A DNA stretch of 64,000 nt from a virus (lineage: Duplodnaviria; Heunggongvirae; Uroviricota; Caudoviricetes), in the IMG/VR virus record IMGVR_UViG_3300009709_000001, positions 317,336 to 381,335 of that record; one strand, written 5' to 3'. A program made the position numbers and the translations under genes. The first letter of the stretch is position 1; every line of letters begins with the position of its first letter. The notes beneath the pieces are model-generated. The model did not search any database, was not told the origin of the DNA, and saw only the letters and a list, made by a program, of their open reading frames with translations. Positions 1,682-62,696 of the stretch are shown here, in pieces.

Positions 1682-1760
1682 TGGTACCCCGGACAGGATT
1701 CGAACCTGCATTGACTCCATTACACTTCTACGCTTTAGAAGAGCGCTGTGGTACCGAGGT
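1682..1760 (-). tRNA. tRNA-like gene, 76 nt + encoded CCA; possible anticodon UCU (Arg); non-canonical D region
   Basis: Hand fold of minus strand: acceptor ACCTCGG/CCGGGGT (7 bp, one G-U), T arm GCAGG-TTCGAAT-CCTGT, discriminator A, CCA; only 5-bp/7-nt-loop arm is GCGCT-CTTCTAA-AGCGT, displaced 12 nt toward the 5' end; no canonical D arm found. Confidence 0.5.
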
Positions 1761-4252: not shown

Positions 4253-4282
4253 CACAAACTCCTGAACTAATAGGTTGCATGC

Positions 4283-4311
4283 ATTGTAACGCATGCAAGA
4301 CGGTGTGTCAA
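4283..4311 (-). promoter_or_regulatory. sigma70-type promoter TTGACA-17-TACAAT
   Basis: Minus strand gcacTAATTGACAcaccgtcttgcatgcgtTACAATgcatgc; directly follows the stop of 4312..4731. Confidence 0.7.
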
Positions 4312-4731: not shown

Positions 4732-5093
4732 TATAGTTCCTTATAATTCTTTTCAATCCAGTTTGCAATCTTCTTGAAGCTTACACCGCTATCATTTGCA
4801 TCGACAAGAGATTCATACACATTGCCGGAAATAGTAAGATCATCGGCGACTGAACCTTCACCGTTGTCCATCATAGCCCAGTCCCTAACTTCAAGCGGAA
4901 GAATTGCACTCTCTCCGAGATAAAAACGAGGTTGGGATTGTTCCCTGGCAATTTTCGGATGTGCCTGTGCATGTAGATTACACAGAACACCTAGACAACA
5001 GAACCCTTCGTCATTTCGAAGAGCACCTTCGGTCTTTTTGTATTCACCACTACGAAGTGCTTTCACCCACTTTTCTGCAATCTTCTTTTTCAT
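4731..5093 (-). CDS. hypothetical protein (120 aa), KWVKALRSGEY...CCLGVLC type
   Basis: ORF track; N-terminal pattern KWVKALRSGEYKKTEGALRNDEGFCCLGVLCNL recalls a widespread phage protein of unknown function (from memory). Confidence 0.55.
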   Translation of the reverse strand: MKKKIAEKWVKALRSGEYKKTEGALRNDEGFCCLGVLCNLHAQAHPKIAREQSQPRFYLGESAILPLEVRDWAMMDNGEGSVADDLTISGNVYESLVDANDSGVSFKKIANWIEKNYKEL

Positions 5094-5394
5094 TATTGTT
5101 TTCCTCTGTGTAACCTAGTGCTTTCAACATATTATCGCACCATTGTTTCGATTCTTCTAGTGTTTCGCCCTCTAGGCCATAGCACCAATCGAGCCATTCA
5201 TCCCATTTATATTCGACGTATTTTCCACCGTCTTCAAAGTATCCGACATCCTCACGATGATATGCAGCACGGATTCGAACTCGAGGTGTCTTCTCGATAA
5301 GAGCGACACGAGTTTCTACACGGTCAGGATCGGCACCAGAAATAGTCCGAACTACGAAACCATCACATTGAATCCATGGGCTGATTTTTTGCAT
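5050..5394 (-). CDS. hypothetical protein (114 aa)
   Basis: ORF track; only ATG available is 5 nt downstream of a consensus -10 (leaderless layout). Confidence 0.55.
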   Translation of the reverse strand: MQKISPWIQCDGFVVRTISGADPDRVETRVALIEKTPRVRIRAAYHREDVGYFEDGGKYVEYKWDEWLDWCYGLEGETLEESKQWCDNMLKALGYTEENNNEKEDCRKVGESTS

Positions 5395-5399
5395 ACTTA

Positions 5400-5428
5400 A
5401 TTATATGTGAGTTCTCTGGAAAAGTCAA
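5400..5428 (-). promoter_or_regulatory. sigma70-type promoter TTGACT-17-TATAAT, ATG 5 nt after -10
   Basis: Minus strand aagTTGACTtttccagagaactcacaTATAATtaagtATGCAAAAA. Confidence 0.7.
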
Positions 5429-5600
5429 CTTGATTAAGAATAGTGTTTCGTCAATCAAGTTGTTGCCTAAAGGCAACACTTCTTCGAAAATGAAGAATTG
5501 GACGGCGTTTGACTCAAAAGTGTTGGTTCTGAGCAACAAAACGCTCTAATGTTTCAATGATTTTCGTTGTGATCTGATCAGATTTCGAATGAGTTTCGTG

Positions 5601-8359: not shown

Positions 8360-8549
8360 CGTACTTCAACTTTAACCAGACCGCAGCATCTTCCGGGCAG
8401 GTAAAAGTCAATAATGTAAATCCTGTCTTCGTCTTATGAAAAAATGTAGCACTGGTTACAATGCCATCCGAATACAGATCATAACAATCGGCAATGAACG
8501 ATCCATGTACCCTAGAGTTTGTTGGTAATCCGAAATCTTGTGTTATCAT
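8331..8549 (-). CDS. hypothetical protein (72 aa)
   Basis: ORF track; FTCPEDAAVWLKLKY is a weak EEDA-helix match. Confidence 0.5.
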   Translation of the reverse strand: MITQDFGLPTNSRVHGSFIADCYDLYSDGIVTSATFFHKTKTGFTLLTFTCPEDAAVWLKLKYGDYLITASI

Positions 8550-9322
8550 TTTTCTTGTTCTCTAACCAATTGTTCCATGTCGAGAATACGAGTTCGTGTA
8601 TTGCGACTACCTAATAAGATTAGGATACGCTTACCGACAGAGGAATTCATTATCATTACTAGGCATCCACCTGCTGCATTGGTAAAACCAGTCTTTGATA
8701 GGATGATGCTAAATTTCGAAGTAAGTGGATTGGTGTTATGAACACTAATCAACCTGCCTTGCGCCCTAATTTGTGCTGCCGGTAAACTTGACAATTCAGT
8801 AATAACCGAATTATTAGCAGCAACCAACAGCATCTTCAACAGATCCCGAGCAGTGCTTACGTTACCGTAATCAAGGCCTGTGGGTTCATAAAATTTCGTA
8901 TCGTGCATCTCCAACGTTGATGCACGTTCGTTCATCTTCTCTACACAGTTCTCGAGATTCAGGCAAAGAATTTGTGCAGCGAAATTATCAGATCTAACAA
9001 GAGCAAGTGTGAGTAATTCCTTTCGGGTGAGCTGTGTCACCTTACGCGGAATTGTCGAACTTACTTCCCTTGTCTTCAGAATGTTAAGCTCTTCATTTAG
9101 ATCCTGCTCGCTTGCAAGAATACCAATCATTAACTTACTGATTGATGCAATGGATCTAACCTCATTGCCATCCTTCTCGGTAAGGATATTACCGGAGTCA
9201 TCAGCAACAAGGTAGCTCTTCGCACTAAATGTAGGAATAGGTATAGGCTTGGGTTTCTTAGCCGCGTAAGCATTGCCAGTGGCAAGGGCCAGTGTGCAGG
9301 CGATTGTTACCAAGGCTCTCAT
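8546..9322 (-). CDS. secreted D-alanyl-D-alanine carboxy/endopeptidase (peptidase S11, PBP-type)
   Basis: Signal peptide MRALVTIACTLALATGNAYA; SxxK (ASISKLM), SxN (RSDNFAA) and KTG (SKTGFT) in canonical order; start set to ATG 9322 because a promoter lies inside the longer ORF (8546..9346). Confidence 0.8.
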   Translation of the reverse strand: MRALVTIACTLALATGNAYAAKKPKPIPIPTFSAKSYLVADDSGNILTEKDGNEVRSIASISKLMIGILASEQDLNEELNILKTREVSSTIPRKVTQLTRKELLTLALVRSDNFAAQILCLNLENCVEKMNERASTLEMHDTKFYEPTGLDYGNVSTARDLLKMLLVAANNSVITELSSLPAAQIRAQGRLISVHNTNPLTSKFSIILSKTGFTNAAGGCLVMIMNSSVGKRILILLGSRNTRTRILDMEQLVREQEK

Positions 9323-9328
9323 GTTTAT

Positions 9329-9357
9329 AGCATAACACGAGCGCATAGGTTTGTCAA
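9329..9357 (-). promoter_or_regulatory. sigma70-type promoter TTGACA-17-TATGCT, ATG 6 nt after -10
   Basis: Minus strand TAATTGACAaacctatgcgctcgtgtTATGCTataaacATGAGAGCC; -35 directly follows the stop of 9358..9741. Confidence 0.65.
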
Positions 9358-9741
9358 TTAACCCGTAATAAGTCCACTATCTGGTGAGTTCCATAAAGGC
9401 CCAACAGAAACAGGCCCGTATGTCTTCACAGGTGCAGTCATCGTTGTTCCATCATCTAATCTAAAACTTAGGTGACCTGCACGGTTACAGATATCTAGAA
9501 AGTTATCAGTCACCTCAACCATAAATGTTCCTTCTTCCGGAGACAATAAAATGAGTTGACGCATCTTGAACTGTACCGAAGCTGGATTCTTTGGATACCA
9601 GTTAATGGATATAATCCTATCCAGGTCTGTTCCTAATAACCTGAAGTAACTTGGAATGCCGCTTGTGATAACAATGCCGACAAGGCCTGAGCCTTCATAC
9701 GGACTGGAGGGTAATGCCTGGATGCGAGAAATGACTGTCAT
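9358..9741 (-). CDS. hypothetical protein (127 aa)
   Basis: ORF track; 4-nt overlap with upstream gene. Confidence 0.55.
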   Translation of the reverse strand: MTVISRIQALPSSPYEGSGLVGIVITSGIPSYFRLLGTDLDRIISINWYPKNPASVQFKMRQLILLSPEEGTFMVEVTDNFLDICNRAGHLSFRLDDGTTMTAPVKTYGPVSVGPLWNSPDSGLITG

Positions 9742-10076
9742 CTATTATTTATCTGCAAATTATTGTTCCAGTCATAAGAGCCCGATCGAGAAATACCTTT
9801 TCGAAGCTCGAGTGTTCTTTCTTTACTAAGGAAAACTATTCTATCGGATTTTAACCTATTAAATTCCTCGTCAGTTATTAGAGGAACATTATGGCCCCAG
9901 CGAAGCTTTACATATAGGTCGAATCCCTCAGCAGATTCAATAATCCATCCATTGGACCAATCATCAAGTTTTAGATGGCCACGGCCTGTTAACTCTGCAC
10001 TAACACAGACGAGCATACCCGAATAGTCTTCTTCGAGAAGACTAATCTGAGAACTCTTTAGGTAATAGTAGCTCAT
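9738..10076 (-). CDS. hypothetical protein (112 aa)
   Basis: ORF track; 4-nt overlaps on both sides. Confidence 0.55.
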   Translation of the reverse strand: MSYYYLKSSQISLLEEDYSGMLVCVSAELTGRGHLKLDDWSNGWIIESAEGFDLYVKLRWGHNVPLITDEEFNRLKSDRIVFLSKERTLELRKGISRSGSYDWNNNLQINNR

Positions 10077-14064: not shown

Positions 14065-14487
14065 TTATCCAATGACCGATGCCGGCACATTTGGAAATTT
14101 TCTTTTTAGTTCTTCTCTGAGCTTTGGCTTAACATTGTTTTCGAAATTCTCTTGCACCTTGGCAATACTTGGTGGCCTCGGTGAGAATGGCGCCATAACA
14201 ATCGGCTCGGCCCTTACCCTGATTAAATAATCGATGAGCATATTATTCAACCCATTGTGGGTCATGGCCATATTCATAAGTAAGACTTGAGTGTGCTCAT
14301 CTTCATAATCTAGACTTATAGCCATATAGTAATGTTCGACCCTAACATGCTCACTATGCTCATATTCGTCATCCGTAAGGGTTACTCGATATGAACCAAC
14401 ATTAACGGTTAGATTATTTGCTTCGAAAAAGCATTTAATCAATTCGATGTTTTGTGGTGTTGCGATAATAGTGGTATTCTTAATCAT
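14065..14487 (-). CDS. hypothetical protein (140 aa)
   Basis: ORF track; GGAG upstream of ATG. Confidence 0.55.
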   Translation of the reverse strand: MIKNTTIIATPQNIELIKCFFEANNLTVNVGSYRVTLTDDEYEHSEHVRVEHYYMAISLDYEDEHTQVLLMNMAMTHNGLNNMLIDYLIRVRAEPIVMAPFSPRPPSIAKVQENFENNVKPKLREELKRKFPNVPASVIG

Positions 14488-20357: not shown

Positions 20358-20418
20358 AATTTATATCATATATTTTAACAAAATTAGTTATAGTCTGCAA
20401 GATATAAACATAAATACT

Positions 20419-21405
20419 ATGGTAAATGTATTCTATAAGGAATTTCTAAAGATGAAGACACACAAATGCGAAAATATGACTTGCCAGAATAAATCCGAAA
20501 AGGATAAGTACGGCAATTATAAAAGATACTGCTCGGATGAATGCAAAAAGGTATCGAGATTATTAAAATTCAAAGAAACATATCAACATAAAGATATGGG
20601 TGCAATATTACAAAAACGAAAAGATACATTATTGTCTAAGTATGGTGTCGAGAACGCAGCATGTATATCTGAGGTCAAAGAAAAACTGCGTATAACCACT
20701 ACTAATACCGCGCAAATCCGCACAATAAAAACTAAAGAGACAAACTTAGCACGTTACGGCGTTGAGAGTACAAATTCCCTTGAGTCTGTTCAAGAGAAGA
20801 AAAAGCAAACCTTACTTGAAAGGTACGGCGTAGATCATCAACTTAAAATACCAGGAGTAGCTGCCGAAGTTTCGAAGAAGAATTCGGAAAATGCTAAGGA
20901 GCGACTAGTAAAGTCGAAGAAGACCAATCTTGAAAGATATGGATGTGAAAATCCATCTGCAAACGAAGATATCAAACTCAAAAGAACTGCAACTATGATT
21001 GAACGGTTCGGTGTAGAGAATGCATCGCAGAATGCTAAGGTTCAGTCGAAAAAAGTCAGGGCCGGCTTTAAGACTAAAAAATATACTTTCCCGTCCGGAA
21101 GAATAGACCATGTCCAAGGATATGAACCTTTGGCACTCAGTCAACTTTTACAGGAGGGATATCAAGAAAATGACATTATTACGCTTGATGAATTGATGCC
21201 GGAACTATGGTATCATGAATCGGATGGATCTAAGCGCAGATATTTCCCAGATATTTATATCCCGAAAGAAAATCTATTAATCGAAGTTAAATCCGAATAT
21301 ACTTATCGCGGATTTATTGGTTGGCTAATAACCAACCAATTAAAAGAGCAATGTGCCAGAGATGCTGGATTTAATTATCGACTAATGATAATGGTAAAGA
21401 AATAA
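20419..21405 (+). CDS. repeat-rich PD-(D/E)xK-like homing endonuclease candidate (328 aa)
   Basis: Five ~35-aa modules (KYGVENAAC, RYGVESTNS, RYGVDHQLK, RYGCENPSA, RFGVENASQ); C-terminal YFPDIYIPKENLLIEVKSEYT (D...ExK); AT-rich, antisense to the gene array; alternative start at 20452. Confidence 0.55.
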   Translation: MVNVFYKEFLKMKTHKCENMTCQNKSEKDKYGNYKRYCSDECKKVSRLLKFKETYQHKDMGAILQKRKDTLLSKYGVENAACISEVKEKLRITTTNTAQIRTIKTKETNLARYGVESTNSLESVQEKKKQTLLERYGVDHQLKIPGVAAEVSKKNSENAKERLVKSKKTNLERYGCENPSANEDIKLKRTATMIERFGVENASQNAKVQSKKVRAGFKTKKYTFPSGRIDHVQGYEPLALSQLLQEGYQENDIITLDELMPELWYHESDGSKRRYFPDIYIPKENLLIEVKSEYTYRGFIGWLITNQLKEQCARDAGFNYRLMIMVKK

Positions 21406-24128: not shown

Positions 24129-24881
24129 ATGCAAGAATTTAAACCAACATGGTTATACATAAAGAAACACAATATCACTGGTTTACAATATTTCGGTAAA
24201 ACAAATAGATATCATCCCGAGAAATATATAGGGTCTGGAAAATACTGGCTAGCGCATTTAAGGGTGCATGGAAAAGATATATCAACAACATGGTGTGAAC
24301 TATTCTTCGACCAGCAAACATTGGTAGAATATGCGCTTAAATTTTCAAAAGAAAATAATATAGCCGAATCAAGTGAATGGGCCAATCTTAAGTTTGAAAA
24401 CGGTCTTGATGGAGGTCACAGTGGCGTGGCAAGGAGCGATGAGACAAAGGAAAAATTATCTAAGAAAAATAGAGGAAAACGACATACAAAGGAAACCAAA
24501 AATAAAATTTCAGATTCCAATAAAGGTAAACATAACATGGTAAGACCTGCAGATGTCGGAGCCAAAATTTCGAAAGCACTGACCGGTAAAAAACGAGGTC
24601 CAATGCCAGATGAAACAAAAAGAAAAATTGGTGATGCAAATAAAGGAAAACCTTCATCAAAGAAGGGTATACCAATGCCAGATGAAACAAAAAGAAAAAT
24701 TGGTGATGCAAATAAAGGAAAACCTTCATCAAAGAAGGGTATACCTAGGTCAGCTATTGATAAAGATAAAATCAGAAAAGGCCAAGAAAATGTACCCGAA
24801 ATAACTTGCCCACACTGTCATATTTCAAATAAACCCGGATGTATGAAAAGATGGCACTTTGATAATTGTAAAAAGAAATAA
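24129..24881 (+). CDS. GIY-YIG-type (Seg-like) homing endonuclease (250 aa)
   Basis: WLYIKKHNITGLQYFGKTN; NUMOD3-like repeats (RSDETKEKLS, HTKETKNKIS, PMPDETKRKIG x2); C-terminal CPHC...KRWHFDNC zinc finger; AGGAGA RBS. Confidence 0.75.
   Translation: MQEFKPTWLYIKKHNITGLQYFGKTNRYHPEKYIGSGKYWLAHLRVHGKDISTTWCELFFDQQTLVEYALKFSKENNIAESSEWANLKFENGLDGGHSGVARSDETKEKLSKKNRGKRHTKETKNKISDSNKGKHNMVRPADVGAKISKALTGKKRGPMPDETKRKIGDANKGKPSSKKGIPMPDETKRKIGDANKGKPSSKKGIPRSAIDKDKIRKGQENVPEITCPHCHISNKPGCMKRWHFDNCKKK
24600..24744. repeat. perfect 72-bp tandem duplication (2 copies) inside the endonuclease gene
   Basis: caatgccagatgaaacaaaaagaaaaattggtgatgcaaataaaggaaaaccttcatcaaagaagggtatac at 24601-24672 and 24673-24744; duplicates 24 aa PMPDETKRKIGDANKGKPSSKKGI. 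Confidence 0.95.
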
Positions 24882-25583: not shown

Positions 25584-25613
25584 ATTATAGGGCCACCAGG
25601 GCCCTATAGTCAA
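25584..25613 (-). promoter_or_regulatory. sigma70-type promoter TTGACT-18-TATAAT whose spacer is a 9-bp hairpin
   Basis: Minus strand cagTTGACTatagggccctggtggcccTATAATgcatttg; tatagggcc/ggccctata stem spans the spacer and -10. Confidence 0.65.
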
Positions 25614-25641
25614 CTGAGTTTTACGTCAATTGGAACTGGTT

Positions 25642-26820
25642 TTACCAGTCGCTGCTGCCGGAATCGCTGCTGGAGCTGCTGCCGGAGTCGGACGAACCCC
25701 AGCTGCTGCCGCTGTCGCTGCTCGAACTGGACCAGCTGCTGGAACGGCTGCTGCTGTCGTCATCGTCACGGCTGGACGAATAGCTCGGAGCAGGGGCCGG
25801 CGCGTAGTACGGTGCAGGGGCGGGAGCCGGTTCCGGGGCAGAGCTGGAGCTGAACTCGGAAGTACCACCCCACTCGGCGTCGTCCTTGGCCGAGCTGCTG
25901 AAGGTCGGTGCAGGTGCCGTGATCACGGGCGGGGTGTACGTCGAAGCACTCGAACTGTAGTCACTGGTGCCCGAGGATTCCTCGCGGCGTCGACGAGTCA
26001 CAGTGTCATCATCATGACGATGACGGAGCGCATCGCTGATCATGTTGCCAGCAACCACACCACCTGCCACTGCCACACCCGTTTCCAGAGCCGACGGACC
26101 GGTATGGACCACGGTCGGAGGAACATAGGTGGGTGCCGGAGGAGCCGTATAGGTGCGCGACGGACGGGACCATGCAGCCGGGCTCGGTGCCGGAGGCGTC
26201 GAATAGGTGCTGCGAGTGGTACCCATACCGCTACTGGCCGTGGTCACAGAGGAGGGAGCCGAGGTAGCGGTTGCAGTCACAGGACTGGAGAAGTCGACGC
26301 CACCGTCTTCAGACTTGGTCCGGCGATACCAGTAGTAGCCCAGGCCACCCAGCGTGAACAGGAACAGCAGAACCAGGAACTTGGAACCGAACGAGCTGCC
26401 TTCATCGGCCGGCTTCGTTACCGCCACGGGTTGTGCCTGCACTTGAGGTGCAGCTTGGACGACCACGGGAGGAGGGGGCGGCACATAGGCCTGGACCACC
26501 GGCTGACGGGCGCCGGCGATGTCGCGTTCCATCTTGGCGAACAGGCGCGAACCGAGCACGTCACCCTTGTGATCGTATGCGCGGACGGCGTCCAGTTCAC
26601 GCTGGGCGAGATTGGGGTCTCGTTCCAGACACATGATCGTTGCCGCATTCAGCAGGTGAGCGCGAGCGCTATCCGGGCGCGACACCAGGATCTCATTCAC
26701 GTAATTGCGCGCTTGGGCGCAGTTGCCGTTTTCCAGGGCGGATTCGACCTGCTTCGGACTGGGGAGGGCCATTGCGGTCGCAGACAGCAAGGCAAGGGAA
26801 AGGGACAGAATACGCTTCAT
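25642..26820 (-). CDS. signal peptide + helical-repeat (TPR-like) domain + TM + Ser/Pro/Thr-rich tail (392 aa), GC-rich
   Basis: MKRILSLSLALLSATAMA; TM FLVLLFLFTLGGLGYYWY; tail ends SSSSDSGSSDW; AAGGAG 6 nt before ATG. Confidence 0.65.
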   Translation of the reverse strand: MKRILSLSLALLSATAMALPSPKQVESALENGNCAQARNYVNEILVSRPDSARAHLLNAATIMCLERDPNLAQRELDAVRAYDHKGDVLGSRLFAKMERDIAGARQPVVQAYVPPPPPVVVQAAPQVQAQPVAVTKPADEGSSFGSKFLVLLFLFTLGGLGYYWYRRTKSEDGGVDFSSPVTATATSAPSSVTTASSGMGTTRSTYSTPPAPSPAAWSRPSRTYTAPPAPTYVPPTVVHTGPSALETGVAVAGGVVAGNMISDALRHRHDDDTVTRRRREESSGTSDYSSSASTYTPPVITAPAPTFSSSAKDDAEWGGTSEFSSSSAPEPAPAPAPYYAPAPAPSYSSSRDDDDSSSRSSSWSSSSSDSGSSWGSSDSGSSSSSDSGSSDW

Positions 26821-26838
26821 GTGTAGCTCCTTGGGGGT

Positions 26839-26865
26839 GAAAACTGGGGCCCCGAAGGGCCCCAG
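26839..26865 (-). terminator. rho-independent terminator
   Basis: Minus strand ctggggccc-ttcg-gggccccag followed by ttttc, 3 nt after the stop of 26869..27966. Confidence 0.8.
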
Positions 26866-26868
26866 GGG

Positions 26869-27966
26869 TCAGATTGCAGCCATCCAGTCGTAGTTGGCGC
26901 GGCCGTACACCTCACGGGTGAACACCACGACCGTCTGCGCCGGCGTACCTTCGTCGACCACGTAAGTGAACGTACCCGCTTCCGGTTCGATGCGCTTCAG
27001 GTGCTTCGGATTCAGCTCCAGGGTGAAGCTGTCGTCCTTGTCTTCCGGGCAGCCGGCCGACTCGCCAACGCTGATGTTCAGCTCTTCGCTGGCCACCGGG
27101 CTTCCGCGCCACGTGTCGGGGTAGATGCGGTTGGTGTCGATCGCCTTGCCTTCGCGGATGATGCTGACCTTGTGGCGCATGCTGCTGTCGGCGAACGGTT
27201 TCGCGTTGAGCAGTTCCAGCACTTGGTGCGGCGTCTCGTTGTAGCGGTTCATGTCTTCGACCAGCGCCTTCAGCATGTCGAAGTTGAAGCTTTCGTACAG
27301 CATGGCCAGACGGCAGATCGTCGGGATGTGCGTCTTGTCGTTGAGGCGATCGTTGCAGTATTCTTCGATGAACGCTGCGTCGATGCCCTTGTACTCCAGG
27401 CAGTAGAAGACACGACCCGGCCGATTGCGCATGTGGCTGTTGACGCGGTACTTGTCGTTGCAGGTCAGGATGAACAGCTTCTTGCTCGGGAACACGCCGT
27501 CGAGCAGGGTCAGGATAGCTTCCTGTTCCTTTTCGCCGAACACCTTCTCGAACTCGTCGAACACGACCACGCACGGCTGGTTGATGTTCTGAATGAAGGC
27601 GTTGAAGCCGTCACCGCAGAAGTCGCTGTTGATGACCAGGACGGGCATGTTGTGCGCTTCAACCGCGTTCTTGGCGATGAGCTTGGCCAACATCGTCTTG
27701 CCCGAACCCTTTTCGCCGGTCAGCAGCACACCAGTGCTGTTCGGGCGATCGAGGAAGGTGCTCATGATGCGATCAGCACGGCCGTGGATGTTGCCGTAGA
27801 TCTTGCCGTCGATGTTGAAGTTGTTGATGGGCTTCAAGAAGAAGCCTCGGCCCGGCATTGCACCGACCGTGTACGTGCCCGGGGGCAGCGTCTCGTGCAT
27901 GTCGAGCGCCGCTTTCGGGGTGGGGAAAAACAAGCCGCCTTCGCGGGAGAAAATGGTGCTACTCAT
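26869..27966 (-). CDS. AAA+ ATPase (365 aa), GC-rich
   Basis: Walker A LLTGEKGSGKT, Walker B VVVFDEFEK. Confidence 0.8.
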   Translation of the reverse strand: MSSTIFSREGGLFFPTPKAALDMHETLPPGTYTVGAMPGRGFFLKPINNFNIDGKIYGNIHGRADRIMSTFLDRPNSTGVLLTGEKGSGKTMLAKLIAKNAVEAHNMPVLVINSDFCGDGFNAFIQNINQPCVVVFDEFEKVFGEKEQEAILTLLDGVFPSKKLFILTCNDKYRVNSHMRNRPGRVFYCLEYKGIDAAFIEEYCNDRLNDKTHIPTICRLAMLYESFNFDMLKALVEDMNRYNETPHQVLELLNAKPFADSSMRHKVSIIREGKAIDTNRIYPDTWRGSPVASEELNISVGESAGCPEDKDDSFTLELNPKHLKRIEPEAGTFTYVVDEGTPAQTVVVFTREVYGRANYDWMAAI

Positions 27967-28021
27967 CGCTTCTTTCTTGGTTGCGGGATAAATCCCTGGT
28001 TAAATTTGTTTAACAGTCTCT

Positions 28022-28287: not shown

Positions 28288-28364
28288 AGCGTACCCACCA
28301 CAGTTTCATCTTTTAATTTCCAAATGCCATCGCCAATTATTGGTCCAAAAAGATAAATAAACAT

Positions 28365-29192
28365 ATGAATACTCCATTTCTAAATAACAAATATACTGCC
28401 CGATATTATAAAATTATTAATACCGTTTTAGAATTAAATCGAAAGAAATTAAAAAGAAATAACCCTGATTACAGGTATTATGAATTGCATCATATTATTC
28501 CCAAATCATTAGGTGGTGACAATTCTTCTGCAAATCTTATACCTTTGACACCAAGGGAACATTATATATGCCACCTTTTACTCACCCGAATGACTGAAGG
28601 TAAAAATAGATATAAGATGCTCTGTGCATTCAACAGAATAACAAATAGAGGCCAGGCAGAAATTAAAAATTCTAGATTATATAATTCTATTCGAGAAGAC
28701 TTTTCGAAATCGCAGGCCGAAAATTATAAAGGTGATAAAAATCATTTTTATGGAAAGACTCACACAAAAGAAATCAGAGATTATTTAGCTGAGGTATGTC
28801 CACGATTCGGTAAAGATAATGGCAATTTTGGTAAATCATTATCTCAATCACAAAAAGATGCAATTTCGAAAAGTAATAAATCCAGAAAAATTATACCTCC
28901 ACCTCCGCAACTCGGTTCAAAAAATCATTTTTCTAAGATTTATAAAATAATCGACCCAACCGGTAATAAATTTACAATAAAATGCATGAGTGAATTTTGT
29001 GAAAGAAACAATCTTTGTAGTCGAACAATGATTTTATTTAAGGACAAAGGAAAAATTCCTGAATTGCAATTCGAACGAGAATATCGTGTAAAGAATCTCC
29101 AAGCAAAGAAGAACTGTGAAGGTTATTCTATTATTTCAATGACCTCGCCCCTTGGTCCTTTTCCATCAATCGACCATACAGTTACCGGATAA
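28365..29192 (+). CDS. HNH homing endonuclease (275 aa)
   Basis: LHHIIPKSLGGDNSSANLIPLTPREHYICHLLL; a 70-nt sample at the 5' end is 23% G+C by hand count; 3' end overlaps the macro-domain gene by 70 nt (convergent). Confidence 0.8.
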   Translation: MNTPFLNNKYTARYYKIINTVLELNRKKLKRNNPDYRYYELHHIIPKSLGGDNSSANLIPLTPREHYICHLLLTRMTEGKNRYKMLCAFNRITNRGQAEIKNSRLYNSIREDFSKSQAENYKGDKNHFYGKTHTKEIRDYLAEVCPRFGKDNGNFGKSLSQSQKDAISKSNKSRKIIPPPPQLGSKNHFSKIYKIIDPTGNKFTIKCMSEFCERNNLCSRTMILFKDKGKIPELQFEREYRVKNLQAKKNCEGYSIISMTSPLGPFPSIDHTVTG

Positions 29193-35618: not shown

Positions 35619-36884
35619 TTAGCCCTTGACACATAACACCTGCTTCAAGGTGTGTACAACCTTGACCAAGTCAGTTTGGCTGAGCATCACATCGTCAATG
35701 GACTTATAGGCTGCCGGACTTTCGTCAATCATGCCTTCGTCCTTACGGCATTCCACACCTGCAGTGGCCGCCACGTGTTCTTCAACCGTAATTTCCTTCT
35801 TTGCTTTGGAACGGCTCATCTTGCGTCCTGCACCATGGCTGCATGAGCAGAAGCTTTCAACATTACCCAGGCCTTCAACGATGAAGCTCTTTGCACCCAT
35901 CGAGCCCGGGATGATGCCCAACTCACCAGCTTGTGCGCTTACCGCGCCCTTACGAGTAACGATCACGTTTTCACCAAAGTGAACTTCTTCGTTGATGTAG
36001 TTGTGGTGGCAATTGATAGCTTCCTTCGTGATCTTGAAGACAGGAAGATGACGAGTCAGCGCCGTAATAACCAGTTCCAACATTGCGTCACGGTTGCGAC
36101 GTGCGTATTCCTGCGCCCAGCTCATTGCCTCGACATAATCGTCGTAATGTTGGCTACCTTCCTGCAAGTAAGCCAGATCCTTGTTCGGAAGAACAATCTT
36201 CTGTTCTTCAGCGTCTTTCTGTGCCAGCTCGATAAAGTAACGACCGATTGCATTACCAATGCCGCGAGAACCACTGTGGAGCATAATCCACACATCGTTG
36301 TTTTCATCGATGCACAGTTCGATGAAGTGATTGCCTCCGCCCAACGAACCGAGCTGAGTACGCGCCTTCTTTTCAGCGTCCTTGACCATCTTGTCGATGC
36401 CAGGATGCTTTGCAACGATTGCTTCCAGGCCAGTCTTCAGATTCTTGAACTGGTTGTTCAGAACGGTGCGTGTATTTTGATGACCCTTGCCATTCAAACG
36501 GTCGGTACTGTGTTCGTCGAACCCAACAGGCACCATCAATTCGATTTCGGAACGAACCTTGTGCAGATTGTCCGGAAGCTGATCAGCAGTCAAGCTGGTA
36601 CGACATGCAATCATGCCGCAACCAATATCAACGCCAACAGCCGCAGGAATTACAGTGCCGTGCGTTGCAAGCACCGTACCAACAGTAGAACCAGTACCAA
36701 CGTGTACGTCCGGCATCGCAGCCACGTGCTTAAATACAAAAGGCAGTTTGGTAATGCTGCGAAGTTGATCGATCGCGCCGGATTCGACGGGGACGTGCTT
36801 AGTCCACATTTTCACATCAACAAGGTCTCCTCGAATTAAATTATATGGGAGATATTTCTCATCATTAATATCTTCTTGCATCAT
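35619..36884 (-). CDS. rtcB: RtcB RNA 3'-phosphate ligase (421 aa)
   Basis: HSGSRGIGN, CHHNY and CSCSHGAGR motifs; full length. Confidence 0.95.
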   Translation of the reverse strand: MMQEDINDEKYLPYNLIRGDLVDVKMWTKHVPVESGAIDQLRSITKLPFVFKHVAAMPDVHVGTGSTVGTVLATHGTVIPAAVGVDIGCGMIACRTSLTADQLPDNLHKVRSEIELMVPVGFDEHSTDRLNGKGHQNTRTVLNNQFKNLKTGLEAIVAKHPGIDKMVKDAEKKARTQLGSLGGGNHFIELCIDENNDVWIMLHSGSRGIGNAIGRYFIELAQKDAEEQKIVLPNKDLAYLQEGSQHYDDYVEAMSWAQEYARRNRDAMLELVITALTRHLPVFKITKEAINCHHNYINEEVHFGENVIVTRKGAVSAQAGELGIIPGSMGAKSFIVEGLGNVESFCSCSHGAGRKMSRSKAKKEITVEEHVAATAGVECRKDEGMIDESPAAYKSIDDVMLSQTDLVKVVHTLKQVLCVKG

Positions 36885-37558
36885 TTTTCCTTACAATTAT
36901 CGAAATGCCATCTTTTCATTTGGCTATTACCGCCAATTTTACCACAATATGGGCACTCAATTTTTATACGAGGAACTCTCATTTTTATTTTTTGTTCCTC
37001 GCTCATTGGTCTATTTTTACTAAATGGTTCTCTACCTTTGTTAGCCAAAGAAATTTTATTTTTCGTTTCTTGAGTTGTAATATGCCCCTTCAGGGAATTG
37101 GATCGTTTTATATTTTCTTCTATTGAAGGTTTTCTACCGGGTACACCTTTCTTAGATTTCGAAATTTTTTCTTTTGTAGAGGCTAAACACGGGCCGGTAC
37201 TCTTTCCAATTTTTGCTACAGACATTTTGGACTTGGCGGCTTCAGAATGTTTTCTTCCACCCGGACCTTCGCCGCCATCTGTTAGATTAAGCAACGGACC
37301 TTTACCGAGATCTTTTCTTCCAAATTTAGAAATAAGTTCTTCCTCAATTAAGTGCGCCAGTTCTTCATCGAGGCCAGAATAAATACCAATAATCGGAATA
37401 ATTTGGTTTCTTTCCATTAATTTTAATCGTTGTATTAATGGATGTTTTCCTTTTCTCTTTAAATGACTCCATGCACGACTATCTCTGCCTTTACCGACAT
37501 ATATCGGTTCATTATTTCGAGAAGGATCGTAGTAGATATAGGTGTAATAATTATTCAT
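36881..37558 (-). CDS. GIY-YIG homing endonuclease (225 aa)
   Basis: YYTYIYYDPSRNNEPIYVGKGRDSRAWSH; NUMOD3-like repeats; C-terminal CPYC...KRWHFDNC zinc finger; stop overlaps the rtcB ATG (ATGA). Confidence 0.8.
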   Translation of the reverse strand: MNNYYTYIYYDPSRNNEPIYVGKGRDSRAWSHLKRKGKHPLIQRLKLMERNQIIPIIGIYSGLDEELAHLIEEELISKFGRKDLGKGPLLNLTDGGEGPGGRKHSEAAKSKMSVAKIGKSTGPCLASTKEKISKSKKGVPGRKPSIEENIKRSNSLKGHITTQETKNKISLANKGREPFSKNRPMSEEQKIKMRVPRIKIECPYCGKIGGNSQMKRWHFDNCKEK

Positions 37559-37573
37559 TACACTATTTATCTA

Positions 37574-40312: not shown

Positions 40313-41183
40313 TTTCTTCTTCTTTTTCTTCTTCTTGTTTCTTGAGCTTGTTAATCGCTCTTTGTAATTGCTTCGACTGTGTAGATTTACCAGTTAGCAT
40401 TTCAGCTGTCAAGTCAAGCATCATGACTTCTCTGAGTGTATCGTCCATTTCCCAATCGCTTAAAGCATTCTTTTCGGACATACCCGCAATGAAAAGTGCC
40501 CATTGCTTAACCGTGAGCTTGGATTTAGCAATGTTGTCTACCGTTAGCAACTTGATGATATCGGGATGCTTTCTGATAACTTCACGAATGTCAGTCTTAG
40601 TCGAGCATGTCGATGCATACTTAATGAAGACTTCTTTAAATTTCTCGTCATGCTTAATAAGCTTCAACCAGAAATTAGCATAAGTGGAAAAGCCGGTAAA
40701 ATCAGTAATGTGCTTATCGAATACCCATTTATTGGATTGAATAAGTGTACTAAGGTCACCTGATGTCAGTTTCGATGGTACAGGCTGGCCAGCATCAAGA
40801 ATTCTCTTTGGAATCTGTGCAAATAGGTTACCCTGTGCTCTAACACCCATTCCTTTGTAAAGATCTATATCAAAATATTTCTTTGGATCCTTAGCCATTA
40901 GTCTCGATTTTTGTGCGTCGGATAAGACTTCAAGTTCCTTGGTGGTTAATGTGATTAGCTTACTAGCCGAAACATTCACACCTTCGATTGCATAAACCTT
41001 TTCTCCAATACTAGAAAACTTAATCTTACTAGCCACTTCCGGCACATTGTTAAGGAGCGCAATCTTTTCACTTAGTGATAGATTTGTGAATGAAAATAAT
41101 TCAGGCTGAGACTTAGCCAATTCCACAATGTCCTTTAAGCATCCTGATAAGATACTCTTTGTCGATCCATAATAGTAACTCAT
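40257..41183 (-). CDS. hypothetical protein (308 aa) with acidic C-terminus
   Basis: ORF track; 4-nt overlap upstream. Confidence 0.6.
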   Translation of the reverse strand: MSYYYGSTKSILSGCLKDIVELAKSQPELFSFTNLSLSEKIALLNNVPEVASKIKFSSIGEKVYAIEGVNVSASKLITLTTKELEVLSDAQKSRLMAKDPKKYFDIDLYKGMGVRAQGNLFAQIPKRILDAGQPVPSKLTSGDLSTLIQSNKWVFDKHITDFTGFSTYANFWLKLIKHDEKFKEVFIKYASTCSTKTDIREVIRKHPDIIKLLTVDNIAKSKLTVKQWALFIAGMSEKNALSDWEMDDTLREVMMLDLTAEMLTGKSTQSKQLQRAINKLKKQEEEKEEENDKDGSDNEISPEDVSGE

Positions 41184-41638
41184 AGCAATCCTTTTCTTGT
41201 TCTTCTAGCTATTTCTTTTTTGTATTGTTTCGGAGGAAGCTTCTGCCCATCAATCCAGTATTGTTTTGGTCCACCCGGATCTTCAATGGCAGGTCCATCA
41301 AGTCGATGGAGCTTTCCGTCCTTCATCCAAATCTTTGTGTCTTTGTGTATAATCGCCGGACCACCTTCACGGTGTCTTATGCCGTGAATATACCATTCTT
41401 CAATTTCATATTTGAAACCGATGTAGGCAGGGCCATATACGCGATGATAACGTCCTTCATCATCACGATACGCAATATCTTTAGGGTGTTCGTCTGTGTT
41501 ATGATTCCACCAGTACCACCGGTTAAAATCACTTCTCCAGGCGTCCCCTCCATAGCCGCCGTATAGGCCGCCTCGGGGATCTTCGTATCGTTTTTCTAGT
41601 GTTAGACGTTCAAAAAGTGCATCAAGATTCTCGTCCAT
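41180..41638 (-). CDS. MORN-repeat-variant-like protein (152 aa)
   Basis: Repeats of the type hR.dGPA...W..dGk: YHRVYGPAYI, RHREGGPAIIHKDTKIWMKDGKLHRLDGPAIE, YWIDGQKL; ATG 6 nt after a consensus -10. Confidence 0.5.
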   Translation of the reverse strand: MDENLDALFERLTLEKRYEDPRGGLYGGYGGDAWRSDFNRWYWWNHNTDEHPKDIAYRDDEGRYHRVYGPAYIGFKYEIEEWYIHGIRHREGGPAIIHKDTKIWMKDGKLHRLDGPAIEDPGGPKQYWIDGQKLPPKQYKKEIARRTRKGLL

Positions 41639-41644
41639 GCTTTA

Positions 41645-41673
41645 ATTATAGCATACTTTTCAATATCTGTCAA
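41645..41673 (-). promoter_or_regulatory. perfect consensus sigma70 promoter TTGACA-17-TATAAT, ATG 6 nt after -10
   Basis: Minus strand ccTAATTGACAgatattgaaaagtatgcTATAATtaaagcATGGACGAA. Confidence 0.75.
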
Positions 41674-42040
41674 TTAGGAAACAGTTCTCCAAGAACTGTT
41701 CAATTCCACCGCAGAGTTTTACGGTCATTGCATCCATTTCAGAAAAGAGTATAAGACGACGAGATGTAAAGAAGTAAGGATATTCCATATTAGCCATACC
41801 TGCATGGTGCCTGGCTTTAATTGTTTCTGGAATCTCGAAACTATAGACTGTGAAAATTCGCTTCAGGATAAGAAATCCCGAGTATGTCAACCTTAAGCCA
41901 TCTCTGTGATGAAAAATACGTTGATGGAGTTGTTCATCATTAAGTTCGGCCGCTTCTGCATTCTGTTTGCGGACCTCTTCAAAAATGGCCAACTTGAGTG
42001 GTGTCATAATCGTATTTATATTCTCGTTCTGTTCGGACAT
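41660..42040 (-). CDS. hypothetical protein (126 aa)
   Basis: ORF track. Confidence 0.55.
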   Translation of the reverse strand: MSEQNENINTIMTPLKLAIFEEVRKQNAEAAELNDEQLHQRIFHHRDGLRLTYSGFLILKRIFTVYSFEIPETIKARHHAGMANMEYPYFFTSRRLILFSEMDAMTVKLCGGIEQFLENCFLIDRY

Positions 42041-42059
42041 TTTTTAGATAAATAGTGAT

Positions 42060-42428
42060 ATGAAACTTCGCGAAATTCTACTAGAACACATGGTAACGCA
42101 CTTGCTCGAATTATGCAAACGTGAACTAGAAATTGATCAATTTCCTCAAATACAGCTTATCAACGAGCCAACAACTCGTAGCGGCACATCATTCGGCGAA
42201 TTTGACGGAAATATTGTGGTAGTTATTAAGGGAAGACACCCGATGGATGTTATGAGAACTCTTGCACACGAGTTGGTGCACTGGAAACAAAGAGTTGAAA
42301 ATTTGGAACTAGATGGTTCCGATGGAAGTGATACCGAAAATCAGGCAAATGCGATTGCCGGTATCATAATGCGAAAATTCGGGCAAATGTATCCCGAATA
42401 TTTCTTTGAAACTCTTCCAAAATCTTAA
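42060..42428 (+). CDS. small HExxH-motif protein (122 aa), putative metallopeptidase-like
   Basis: TLAHELVHWKQ; occupies a gap in the minus-strand array. Confidence 0.45.
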   Translation: MKLREILLEHMVTHLLELCKRELEIDQFPQIQLINEPTTRSGTSFGEFDGNIVVVIKGRHPMDVMRTLAHELVHWKQRVENLELDGSDGSDTENQANAIAGIIMRKFGQMYPEYFFETLPKS

Positions 42429-46882: not shown

Positions 46883-46923
46883 TATTTCAGCTCCCAGAAA
46901 CTTATGCGTTGATAAATATATTT

Positions 46924-47592
46924 ATGATCAATATTCATTTTTATAAAACATTTTTAGGTAACAAATACTCGAAATGGTATTTGTCTATTATTGTTGCTGC
47001 ACAATCGAAAAATCGTAAAAAATCCGAAGATTGCTATTACGAGCGTCATCATATTATACCCAAATCTATAAATCCTGAGATTTCGAACTTAAAATTAAAT
47101 CCCTGGAATGGAGTATTACTAACCGCGAAAGAGCATTTCATTTGTCATCTTCTTCTTACAAAAATGGCTATAGGAAAAGATAAGAATAAGATGATTTATG
47201 CATTATGGAATCTACGTAATCAGAAAACTAAATCTCAGGACCAGAGATTTACCTCAAATCTATACAACGTATACAAGAAACAGATGCAAGAAGCATTATC
47301 TGTAGATCGAAAAGGTAAATCTCTGGAAGAACGATACGGGATTACTCGTGCATCGGAGATTAAAGCATCCTACCGCACAAGAATCCCTCGTGGGAAAGTT
47401 TCCAATGAAGAAAAGGGTAAACTTTCTGAAAATATGAAAACTCTTCATCAAACCCGGCCTTGGAAAAGATTTATGCAAACCAACGGTGTTCTTCCAAAAA
47501 ATACCTGCCCGCATTGTAATAAAACAATGGATGTCGGTAATTATGGAAGATATCACGGGGACAAATGTAAATTACGCGAGATTAGCAAATAG
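46924..47592 (+). CDS. HNH homing endonuclease (222 aa)
   Basis: RHHIIPKSINPEISNLKLNPWNGVLLTAKEHFICHLLL; C-terminal CPHC...YHGDKC zinc finger; first ATG is 46924 (track start 46909 is TTG); 3' end overlaps the QueE 3' end by 21 nt. Confidence 0.8.
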   Translation: MINIHFYKTFLGNKYSKWYLSIIVAAQSKNRKKSEDCYYERHHIIPKSINPEISNLKLNPWNGVLLTAKEHFICHLLLTKMAIGKDKNKMIYALWNLRNQKTKSQDQRFTSNLYNVYKKQMQEALSVDRKGKSLEERYGITRASEIKASYRTRIPRGKVSNEEKGKLSENMKTLHQTRPWKRFMQTNGVLPKNTCPHCNKTMDVGNYGRYHGDKCKLREISK

Positions 47593-62079: not shown

Positions 62080-62670
62080 TCAGAATCTTCCGTAGGCATC
62101 CCCGGTAATAGGATCGTTGGTTCCCTTATACATATGGGGATCATAGCCGTGAATTGGAGACAATAAACCCTTGGCTTGATTGTCATCACGTACATCACCG
62201 GTAAATCTGTACATTTGGTCAGGCATTACTCGCTTGAACCATTCGACAATTAGCGGTCTAACATCTTGACCGGGCTCTGATTCTTCGATTGACTTGAACT
62301 GATCTGTTAATTCATCGTCATCAATTAGGCCTTCAATAAAAATCGGTGCTATCACAGCAGGGATTGGTTTCTCAAGCATTTTCTTTGCAAGCTCAAAATC
62401 ATCATTTGAGAGTGGCAAACGATGTACTGCTTCAGATAAGGTATTTGACATGCACATTTCCGGAACTAGGCCTTTAAGTTCACGATAATCTGCACGAAGC
62501 TTATCTTTTAGGAATTCTCTGCCGTTAGGAGATGTTCCTGGGTGCATAATCTTATCAACATATCGATCCATGCGTCCTTGGAGCATGTCAATACGCATGG
62601 CTGTTTGCGGCGAGAGGCTACGATCACTCATAGCCCCTTTCGGTAATAATAGTTCTAGAATTCGCATCAT
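62080..62670 (-). CDS. hypothetical protein (196 aa)
   Basis: ORF track. Confidence 0.55.
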   Translation of the reverse strand: MMRILELLLPKGAMSDRSLSPQTAMRIDMLQGRMDRYVDKIMHPGTSPNGREFLKDKLRADYRELKGLVPEMCMSNTLSEAVHRLPLSNDDFELAKKMLEKPIPAVIAPIFIEGLIDDDELTDQFKSIEESEPGQDVRPLIVEWFKRVMPDQMYRFTGDVRDDNQAKGLLSPIHGYDPHMYKGTNDPITGDAYGRF

Positions 62671-62696
62671 GTATTTATCACATGATGCGTCGGTTA

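Follow-up and report, generated by a model that had tools for sequence, protein, structure and literature searches.

Leaderless mRNAs have been described for individual phage genes, lambda cI among them, for one Thermus phage and in certain bacterial phyla. The lambda cI transcript made from PRM is the classic phage example: the -10 element lies approximately 6 nt before the ATG, the message begins with the AUG and it is translated without a Shine-Dalgarno (SD) sequence, as reportedly described by Shean and Gottesman in 1992. PRM is a weak, activator-dependent promoter. In the large myovirus phiYS40 of Thermus thermophilus, a large share of the transcripts is leaderless, late ones included, and infection was reported to raise IF2 and to lower IF3 (PMC3594737). 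Leaderless genes are common in the host phylum of this phage, and in validated leaderless genes of Deinococcus about 6-7 bp separate the -10 from the ORF (PMC12340547). In T4-related or jumbo phages, leaderless mRNAs have so far not been described as a systematic trait. For the RaK2-like phages, RpoD-like promoters were predicted in a small-gene region together with an ATAAATA late motif, and no leaderless transcripts were reported for CBB (PMC5259590). Transcriptome experiments on the unrelated jumbo phages phiKZ and AR9 found no leaderless transcripts (PMC8244752, PMC5312081). No report of such transcripts in T4-like or RaK2-like phages was found in the literature searched, which is absence of evidence only.

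The window, the whole stretch of 64,000 nucleotides analysed here (part of an approximately 385-kb contig), stems from an uncultured giant T4-related phage. Judged by the DNA polymerase, RaK2-like phages (RaK2, CBB, GAP32, Vibrio phage 2.275.O) are among the closest cultured relatives, with about 40% identity; Sinorhizobium phage Phosso ranks ahead of them and Agrobacterium phage Atu_ph07 alongside them. A first-pass annotation had drawn attention to three promoter motifs directly in front of start codons. All three were found where it had placed them, on the minus strand, which it had left unsaid. The promoters and the genes behind them are as follows:

41645..41673, minus strand: site 1 promoter, -35 TTGACA at 41673-41668, 17-nt spacer with TG at 41653-41652, -10 TATAAT at 41650-41645
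41180..41638, minus strand: site 1 gene, 152-aa MORN-repeat-like protein
9329..9357, minus strand: site 2 promoter, -35 TTGACA at 9357-9352, 17-nt spacer with TG at 9337-9336, -10 TATGCT at 9334-9329
8546..9322, minus strand: site 2 gene, secreted S11 D-Ala-D-Ala carboxypeptidase or endopeptidase
5400..5428, minus strand: site 3 promoter, -35 TTGACT at 5428-5423, 17-nt spacer, -10 TATAAT at 5405-5400
5050..5394, minus strand: site 3 gene, 114-aa protein with no assigned function, N-terminus M-x-K-I/V-S-P-W kept from residue 1

Each site thus has a sigma70-type promoter, with a TTGACA-like -35 and a TATAAT-like -10 at 17 +/- 1 bp. The site 1 promoter matches the consensus at 12/12 positions and is followed by the discriminator taaagc and the ATG (41638-41636), and site 2 (10/12) is followed by ataaac and the ATG (9322-9320), giving a gap of 6 nt between -10 and ATG in both cases. 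At site 3 (11/12) the discriminator taagt leaves a gap of 5 nt before the ATG (5394-5392). An extended -10 TGn was named for sites 1 and 2, not for site 3. No SD-like run was found between the -10 and the ATG at any of the three sites, in agreement with the first-pass annotation. Rfam returned no RNA family at these sites, ARAGORN found no tRNA, and when the 5' ends of the three predicted mRNAs were folded (50 nt each), they proved not to be unusually structured. The TAATTGACA shared by sites 1 and 2 was considered as an extended motif and rejected: relatives vary at these bases, and its TAA is the stop codon of the upstream gene at site 2 and coding sequence at site 1.

Akin to lambda cI and PRM, a sigma70-type promoter places its -10 about 6 nt ahead of the ATG. 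However, in lambda a single regulatory gene is concerned, whereas here the layout serves several unrelated genes (MORN-like, secreted peptidase, small proteins without known function) and is found clade-wide, and the promoters are near-consensus in contrast to the weak PRM.

Promoter-like matches of at least 9/12 are no more frequent in the window than in shuffled sequence; all seven matches of at least 11/12 lie on the coding (minus) strand. The geometry was defined as a promoter of at least 10/12 followed, after 4-8 nt, by the initial ATG of an ORF that encodes 60 aa or more. It occurred three times on the minus strand and not at all on the plus strand, with 0.055 occurrences expected per strand (mean of 200 second-order Markov simulations, none of which reached three). 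Chance as the source of the three sites is effectively refuted. An SD match of at least 4 nt was found at 47% of the 121 ORF starts in the window, compared with 15.5% of control positions. That many other genes have AGGAG-type sites, as had been stated, is therefore true but incomplete, and with roughly half of the genes lacking an SD its absence is not special to the three genes and was rejected as a mark of them.

The annotated ATGs are confirmed as the true starts by N-terminal conservation, the N-termini being conserved from residue 1 in all three families. In the site 1 family M1, E10 and L12 are invariant across 43 orthologs, and no in-frame ATG occurs within the next 40 codons. At site 2, the signal peptide MRALVTIACTLALATGNAYA begins at the Met of the ATG at 9322-9320. 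A further in-frame ATG at 9346 sits within the promoter spacer and is missing from the ortholog in locus L113, and the start is therefore placed at 9322. The upstream genes reach into or up to these promoters: at site 1 the stop codon TGA (41662-41660) falls inside the spacer, and at site 2 the stop codon TAA (9360-9358) adjoins the -35. The -35 of site 1 overlaps coding sequence, being encoded by the C-terminal codons I-D-R of the upstream gene; this overlap was counted against a leaderless reading. Site 3 sits in a 200-nt intergenic gap, which holds a further element upstream of the promoter:

5455..5482, minus strand: short, conserved hairpin GTTGCC-TTTA-GGCAAC

In relatives the hairpin is followed by ATTTTTGAG; in the window no T-run is present. 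It is tentatively a candidate terminator, which would insulate the transcription unit. Neither Pfam nor PHROGs assigned the MORN-like protein, the 114-aa protein or the products of neighbouring genes to a family. The bacterial proteins closest to the peptidase come from gammaproteobacteria and share only 32-38% identity with it, a weak hint as to the host. The neighbourhood of the sites consists of many small genes without known function, which is compatible with an early class and not diagnostic of it.

To assess conservation, orthologous loci on divergent metagenomic jumbo-phage contigs were compared. Among 50,697 phage records, megablast gave no match to the site 1 region; viral-contig orthologs of site 1 were found using an alignment of homologs, a single-protein scan having found nothing. 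With the count restricted to promoters of at least 10/12 that end 5-6 nt before the ATG, the site 1 layout was present in 16 of 29 non-redundant orthologous loci (proteins 42-68% identical); composition-preserving shuffles averaged 0.09 and never exceeded 2. TGn accompanied 13/18 of the site 1 ortholog promoters. The close relatives L118-L120 keep the layout, an 18-nt spacer being paired with a 5-nt gap in L120. The -35 is likewise retained in L009, L016 and L021, in which it is not overlapped by any gene on its strand. For site 2, about 18 of 25 orthologous loci share the layout (L110, L113 and approximately 15 of 22 viral-contig orthologs), five viral contigs having perfect 12/12 promoters. 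The site 3 layout was found in 5 of 10 orthologs and is kept in L110, L113, L124 and L128, its place being taken in the more distant orthologs by a leader of roughly 21 nt or by an SD. Members of a single gene family alternate between a 5-6-nt gap and an SD or a 16-21-nt leader. Across the three families the hexamers, TGn, the 16-18-nt spacer length and the 5-6-nt gap are kept, while the sequences of spacer and discriminator drift. Such a pattern supports the view that the layout behaves as a selected feature. About one third of the orthologs lack the promoter; their ATG lies 1-8 nt behind an upstream stop codon, also without an SD, and hence these genes can be expressed without a promoter of their own.

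The same layout was observed with a second promoter type. In T4, the late promoter TATAAATA occupies positions -13 to -6 and hence ends 5 nt before the start (PMC1524935). At least eight cases of a T4-late-like ATAAATA followed by 4-5 nt and an ATG occur in the window. Among them are:

42007..42020, minus strand: T4-late-like promoter TATAAATA-cgatt-ATG (42007) of the gene upstream of site 1, layout also in L118 and L120/L121
42048..42062, plus strand: ATAAATA-gtgat-ATG of a divergent 122-aa gene (42060-42428)
37556..37570, minus strand: ATAAATA-gtgta-ATG of a homing-endonuclease-like gene (36881-37558)
9739..9752, minus strand: ATAAATA-atag-ATG of a 127-aa gene (9358-9741) just upstream of site 2, layout also in L110 and L113
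28353..28367, plus strand: ATAAATA-aacat-ATG of an HNH/NUMOD3 endonuclease gene (28365-29192)
46912..46926, plus strand: ATAAATA-tattt-ATG of a homing-endonuclease gene (46924-47592)

For the gene upstream of site 1, the true start is probably at 42007, giving a protein of 115 aa and not 126 aa. Across the clade, the commonest spacings between ATAAATA and the ATG are 5 nt (52 cases) and 4 nt (43 cases). Counting the window promoters that have a downstream ORF, 3/12 sigma70-like and 8/14 late-like ones abut the ATG; about 11 of roughly 115 window genes are built in this way. Such a large share resembles phiYS40, which, unlike the present T4-related phage, lies outside the T4 superfamily. A tblastn search with T4 gp55 and gp45 gave no match in the 64 kb window of the approximately 385-kb contig. 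The first-pass annotation had regarded the three sites as a distinct, probably early and host-RNAP-dependent class. A distinct early class is not supported, for the zero-leader layout is at least as common at ATAAATA promoters, both in the window and across the clade: the sigma70-type layout is one face of a clade-wide design shared with the ATAAATA promoters and no special early class.

The distance between sigma70-like promoter and ATG is bimodal across the clade, being either 4-7 nt or at least 13 nt: of 144 promoters, 63 fall at 4-7 nt, 2 at 8-12 nt and 74 at 13 nt or more. The window's own promoters at 13 nt or more carry an SD. T4 shares the early sigma70 and late promoter motifs (PMC1524935), and belongs to the same superfamily with a DNA polymerase (gp43) related to the one found here. 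However, neither promoter type occurs 4-7 nt ahead of an ORF-opening ATG within 100 kb of T4, and the late motifs are 13-40 nt upstream, while roughly half are at 4-7 nt in this clade. Zero-leader geometry was likewise not found in 50 kb of RaK2 and 50 kb of a Vibrio jumbo phage. A fixed short distance between -10 and start (5-6 nt here) and two gene populations, one marked by a -10 motif and the other by an SD, are features shared with Deinococcus-Thermus and mycobacteria (PMC12340547, PMC4633059). Those are cellular genomes in which the -35 is weak or dispensable, whereas here a full -35 and TGn are conserved.

At gaps of 5-6 nt across the clade, the start codon was ATG in 33 cases, GTG in one and TTG in none; GTG or TTG open 24% of the window genes under the longest-ORF rule. 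GUG and UUG are tolerated poorly at the 5' end of an mRNA. TGn occurs in 21/33 geometry sites. The base at -1 was a pyrimidine in 31/33 cases compared with 45% at all window starts (Fisher p = 2e-7), which fits the rule that the modal start is a purine 7 bp from the -10, with a pyrimidine just before it (PMC5730371). This modal position 7 is taken by the A of the ATG at sites 1 and 2, where C stands at -1. Purines at -1 are frequent in the site 2 family. Site 3 and roughly half of the orthologs have a gap of 5 nt, so that the A falls at position 6, one base upstream of the mode and rare for E. coli polymerase (PMC5730371), a rule that is E. coli's and may not be the host's. Starting on the G of the ATG at these sites would destroy the start codon.

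Taken together, the three sites are quite probably functional sigma70-type promoters that give rise to leaderless mRNAs. This reading is well supported because the geometry exceeds chance, recurs in orthologs and belongs to a bimodal distribution of distances; the genes open with an ATG that has no SD and is the true start, and two discrete leader solutions exist. That the mRNAs would begin at or next to the AUG, as first proposed, is further backed by the use of ATG and the pyrimidine at -1. RNA polymerase would start on, or within one base of, the A of the ATG, the resulting mRNAs would have no 5' untranslated region, and a ribosome with initiator tRNA would bind the 5'-terminal AUG directly without SD pairing. 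We infer the start at the ATG, the translation of an AUG-first RNA, and the acting sigma factor and timing from sequence features.

Coincidental promoter-like sequences would be in keeping with the shuffled-sequence frequency of matches of at least 9/12, yet the three geometries far exceed expectation and dozens of diverged orthologous loci share the layout, so that coincidence has a negligible probability. Nor is it probable that the promoters are idle and the genes are translated from polycistronic RNA, by SD-independent initiation or termination-reinitiation, the A/T-rich TATAAT keeping the start unstructured. With about half of the window ORF starts lacking an SD, internal initiation that needs none is evidently open to these genes, which counts against the leaderless reading; the promoter-less site 1 orthologs close behind a stop codon fit idle promoters too, and at sites 1 and 2 only 21 and 35 nt, free of any terminator, separate the end of the upstream gene from the ATG. 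However, an unstructured A/T stretch would need neither a TTGACA 16-18 nt upstream nor TGn nor a fixed 5-6-nt gap, all of which are conserved. Moreover, the -35 persists where it is non-coding, the distances show a sharp gap at 8-12 nt, and site 3 stands in its intergenic gap of 200 nt.

Slightly less probable still is that real promoters start inside or after the ATG, for example at its G, and serve downstream genes, the first ORF being translated from read-through RNA only. A 5-nt gap would favour this, with G at position 8 and T at -1, a favoured combination, while the A occupies position 6, from which starts are rare (PMC5730371), and downstream genes do overlap or abut the first ORF, for example by ATGA at 41183-41180 behind site 1. 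Against it stand the fixed register of promoter and ATG across several gene families, the avoidance of GTG and TTG, and, at sites 1 and 2, an A that sits in the modal position 7 and follows a C; moreover, most 5-nt discriminators look purine-rich by inspection, and such discriminators move starts upstream (PMC5730371). Unlikely, but of more weight, is that the RNAs are leaderless and depend on a phage sigma70-like factor or are made at middle or late times, with no early class of the host polymerase. RaK2-like jumbo phages encode a sigma70-family factor of their own (CBB, PMC5259590), a gene driven by a late-like motif immediately precedes the site 1 promoter, and sequence leaves the timing unfixed. 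On the other hand, TTGACA, 17 nt, TGn and TATAAT are the consensus of housekeeping bacterial sigma factors, such promoters form the early class in T4-type phages (PMC1524935), and no phage sigma gene was found in the 64 kb window of the approximately 385-kb contig.

If the leaderless reading is extended beyond the window, it is conceivable, though we hold it only tentatively, that an environmental clade of T4-superfamily jumbo phages uses leaderless mRNAs routinely, at -35/-10 promoters as well as at gp55-type late (ATAAATA) promoters, possibly in a proteobacterial host; in proteobacteria, such mRNAs are usually scarce and inefficiently translated. If the leaderless reading holds, gene callers that rely on an SD would mis-start such genes. 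In locus L110, two orthologs of the three families are called at other in-frame ATGs, leaving the site 3 protein too short and the site 2 protein too long, and a third gene with the geometry there also appears truncated. Promoter and start codon would form a compact cassette of about 40 nt (about 15 nt for the late type), which the homing endonucleases of this phage also use. The question would arise whether the clade or its host favours ribosome loading on 5'-terminal AUGs. The clade-wide reading would imply either that the phage biases the ribosome pool towards 5'-AUG messages, as was proposed for phiYS40, or that the host translates them unusually well.

Three promoter-ATG junctions lie on the minus strand, and when read on that strand their motifs match exactly those transcribed in the first-pass annotation, which had proposed them as leaderless layouts.

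Site 1, minus strand: TTGACA 41673-41668, 17 nt ending TGc, TATAAT 41650-41645, taaagc, ATG 41638
Site 2, minus strand: TTGACA 9357-9352, 17 nt ending TGt, TATGCT 9334-9329, ataaac, ATG 9322
Site 3, minus strand: TTGACT 5428-5423, 17 nt, TATAAT 5405-5400, taagt, ATG 5394

From such a layout, RNA polymerase would start on the A of the ATG and produce an mRNA without a 5' leader. Site 1 precedes a gene for a 152-aa protein with MORN-like G-x-x-H-R-x-x-G-P-A repeats, for which no family was found in Pfam or PHROGs. The site 2 product is a 258-aa S11 D-Ala-D-Ala carboxypeptidase with a signal peptide, and that of site 3 a 114-aa protein without assigned function. The window is a piece of an uncultured jumbo phage, and proteins identical to its own occur on a contig of about 385 kb. 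The family-B DNA polymerase of this phage, a distant relative of T4 gp43, is ~40% identical to those of Sinorhizobium phage Phosso, Agrobacterium phage Atu_ph07, a Vibrio jumbo phage and the RaK2 group. Nearly all window genes are on the minus strand.

The start codons themselves are well defined. At site 1, the alignment of 43 orthologs begins at Met1, E10 and L12 are invariant in it, and the first 40 codons contain no other in-frame ATG. At site 2, the Met at ATG 9322 is the first residue of the signal peptide; the upstream in-frame ATG 9346, chosen by the ORF finder, is missing from the ortholog in L113 (L numbers denote viral or metagenomic contig loci). The site 3 N-terminus M-x-K-I-S-P-W is kept from residue one, and in the L110 ortholog the automatic gene caller took a downstream ATG, thereby dropping conserved N-terminal residues. 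Taken together, the automatic starts of L110 zero-leader genes appear to be wrong at 10001 (too short) and 5666 (too long), and the call at 14392 is probably too short (132 aa, versus 172 aa from the promoter-abutting ATG near 14270). The absence of a Shine-Dalgarno (SD) sequence is the probable cause of these mis-started calls.

We defined the geometry as a promoter matching at least 10 of the 12 positions of TTGACA plus TATAAT, a gap of 4-8 nt and an ATG at the head of an ORF of 60 codons or more. The window has three instances on the minus strand and none on the plus strand, while Markov simulations give 0.055. Weak promoter-like matches are no commoner than in shuffled sequence. Strong ones are non-random: the seven that score 11/12 or better are all on the coding strand. 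Distances from -10 to ATG are 5, 6 and 6 nt, the next value being 21 nt. The other strong promoters lie 21-45 nt from their ATG, with AGGAG- or AAGGA-type SD sequences. The earlier description of many genes as having AGGAG-type sites holds, but about half of the window genes have no SD.

The main evidence for the leaderless reading comes from orthologous loci. For site 1 these were taken from viral and metagenomic contigs (proteins 42-68% identical). Of 29 non-redundant loci, 16 have a promoter scoring 10/12 or better that ends 5-6 nt ahead of the ATG, and in two more the gap is 9 nt; shuffled upstream regions gave a mean of 0.09 loci (maximum 2). The hexamers, the extended -10 TGn (13/18) and both spacings are kept while spacer and discriminator sequences vary freely, and in L120 an 18-nt spacer is coupled with a 5-nt gap. 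In the window the -35 is coded by the final codons (I-D-R) of the upstream gene; L009, L016 and L021 lack this gene, yet retain the -35. Where orthologs code I-D-R as ATAGATAGA, the -10 is missing and the ATG directly follows the stop codon. Among promoter-less orthologs, including L013, L015, L031 and L035, the ATG lies 1-8 nt past the upstream stop without an SD. The site 1 family seems to choose between two SD-independent modes, upstream-gene coupling or a promoter abutting the ATG.

The site 2 arrangement TTGAC(A/G), 17 nt, TGt, TATGCT, 6 nt, ATG is kept in L110 and L113, and the layout recurs in 15 of 22 further viral-contig orthologs (52-63% identical), five of them perfect 12/12 matches; the L135 ortholog has a 16-nt gap with GAGG in its place. 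Site 3 is kept in L110, L113, L124 and L128, and its more distant orthologs show a 21-nt gap or an SD without an abutting promoter. Other families at these loci share the layout, namely a 74-aa protein, a 70-72-aa protein and a secreted Hydrolase_2 protein.

Across 97 pooled clade loci (550 kb), enriched for the three site families and hence biased in counts, the first ATG that opens an ORF lies 4-7 nt from a strong promoter in 63 cases, 8-12 nt in two and 13-60 nt in 74. With a gap of 5-6 nt, 33 genes start with ATG, one with GTG and none with TTG, and the base ahead of the ATG is T or C in 31/33, versus 45% of all window starts (p = 2e-7). Neither feature was part of the search pattern, and both would be expected if transcription starts on the A. 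A start codon at the 5' terminus generally has to be AUG. E. coli polymerase prefers to start 7 bp past the -10, on a purine after a pyrimidine (PMC5730371), and in experimentally validated Deinococcus leaderless genes the -10 lies about 6-7 bp ahead of the ORF (PMC12340547).

The T4-late-like motif ATAAATA, missed in the first-pass annotation, shows the same abutting layout. In T4 the late motif TATAAATA spans -13 to -6, leaving 5 nt to the start site (PMC1524935). The window cases, all without an SD, are as follows.

42048-42062, plus strand: ATAAATA 4-5 nt before ATG of gene 42060
42007-42020, minus strand: ATAAATA 4-5 nt before ATG of gene 42007
37556-37570, minus strand: ATAAATA 4-5 nt before ATG of gene 37558
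28353-28367, plus strand: ATAAATA 4-5 nt before ATG of gene 28365
46912-46926, plus strand: ATAAATA 4-5 nt before ATG of gene 46924
9739-9752, minus strand: ATAAATA 4-5 nt before ATG of gene 9741
62668-62678, minus strand: ATAAATA 1-2 nt before ATG of gene 62670
20410-20421, plus strand: ATAAATA 1-2 nt before ATG of gene 20419

Other ATAAATA genes of the window have 17-36 nt between motif and start codon, with an SD. Clade-wide, this distance peaks at 5 nt (n=52) and 4 nt (n=43), drops to two cases at 8-12 nt and has a further mode at 13-40 nt; the start codon is ATG in 96/98. T4 has ATAAATA 13-40 nt upstream of the start and none at 4-5 nt. Orthologs of the divergent gene pair beside site 1 keep ATAAATA-N5-ATG with differing N5 sequence. 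The 4-7 nt layout, with either promoter type, was found nowhere in 100 kb of T4, 50 kb of RaK2 or 50 kb of Vibrio phage 2.275.O. Of about 115 genes in the window, about 11 have the zero-leader layout, as do 11 of the 26 predicted promoters. Since it also occurs at ATAAATA, it is a general clade habit that is not bound to one promoter class, and the proposal of a distinct early class is not supported.

Several further features were observed. The gene upstream of site 1 (41660-42040, minus) probably starts at ATG 42007 (115 aa) rather than at 42040 (126 aa); L118 and L120/L121 keep TATAAATA-cgatt-ATG, and their gene calls give 115 aa. L009, L016 and L021 share an opposite-strand block (~2925-2960) upstream of the MORN-like gene, AGATAAATA-(a)gtgtAGTTCGCGAT, with a late-like motif and no ATG at the usual distance; TTCGCGA is common to this block and the start of window gene 42060 (plus). 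Five scattered homing-endonuclease-like genes (HNH, NUMOD3, DUF7487; 20419-21405, 24129-24881, 28365-29192 and 46924-47592, plus; 36881-37558, minus) each have their own ATAAATA, four of the five in leaderless layout and four of the five opposite to most genes; together with the abutting motif they look like compact mobile expression cassettes. A G+C-rich island at 25600-28000 (0.61 versus about 0.42 elsewhere) contains a 392-aa ORF without family and a 365-aa AAA/STAND-type NTPase, a type also present in the relative L118, and is preceded by the GC-rich hairpin GGGGCCC-TTCG-GGGCCCC and promoter-like sites with leaders. At 4275-4311 (minus) the -10 of a strong promoter, TTGACA-17-TACAAT, lies within the perfect inverted repeat TTGCATGC-N8-GCATGCAA, which resembles an operator that overlaps the -10; the downstream gene carries an AGGAG SD. 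An Rfam tRNA-like match at 1685-1760 (minus; 35.2 bits, gathering score 29), for which ARAGORN makes no call, lies in an inter-ORF gap just upstream of an ATAAATA motif.

Conservation, bimodal spacing, ATG use and the -1 pyrimidine uphold the proposed layout, from which we infer the leaderless RNA itself; for the three sites this reading is well supported. Where the gap is 5 nt, as at site 3 and in half of the orthologs, the A falls at position 6, rarely used by E. coli polymerase, which may differ from the host's, and the G of the ATG competes as a start. Most of the discriminators concerned look purine-rich, and purine-rich discriminators move starts upstream (PMC5730371). SD-independent translation from longer transcripts may contribute to expression; with about half of the genes lacking an SD and the promoter-less site 1 orthologs coupled to an upstream stop codon, this route is available alongside leaderless initiation. 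RaK2-like phages encode their own sigma70-family factor (PMC5259590). No gp55 or gp45 homolog was found within the 64-kb window.

Lambda cI transcribed from PRM is a single-gene precedent for leaderless phage mRNA. A phage-wide precedent is the Thermus phage phiYS40: most of its middle and late mRNAs lack a leader, and IF2 and IF3 levels are reported to shift during its infection (PMC3594737). Among cells, precedents come from Deinococcus-Thermus and mycobacteria (PMC12340547, PMC4633059). No leaderless phage transcripts appear in the transcriptome maps of jumbo phages phiKZ and AR9 (PMC8244752, PMC5312081), none are mentioned in the promoter survey of CBB, a RaK2-like phage (PMC5259590), and no report of them in T4-like phages was found in the literature searched. 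Unlike the sampled T4 and RaK2, this clade abuts both promoter types to the ATG, and this clade-wide habit, shared by two promoter types, is the newer and more testable side of the finding.
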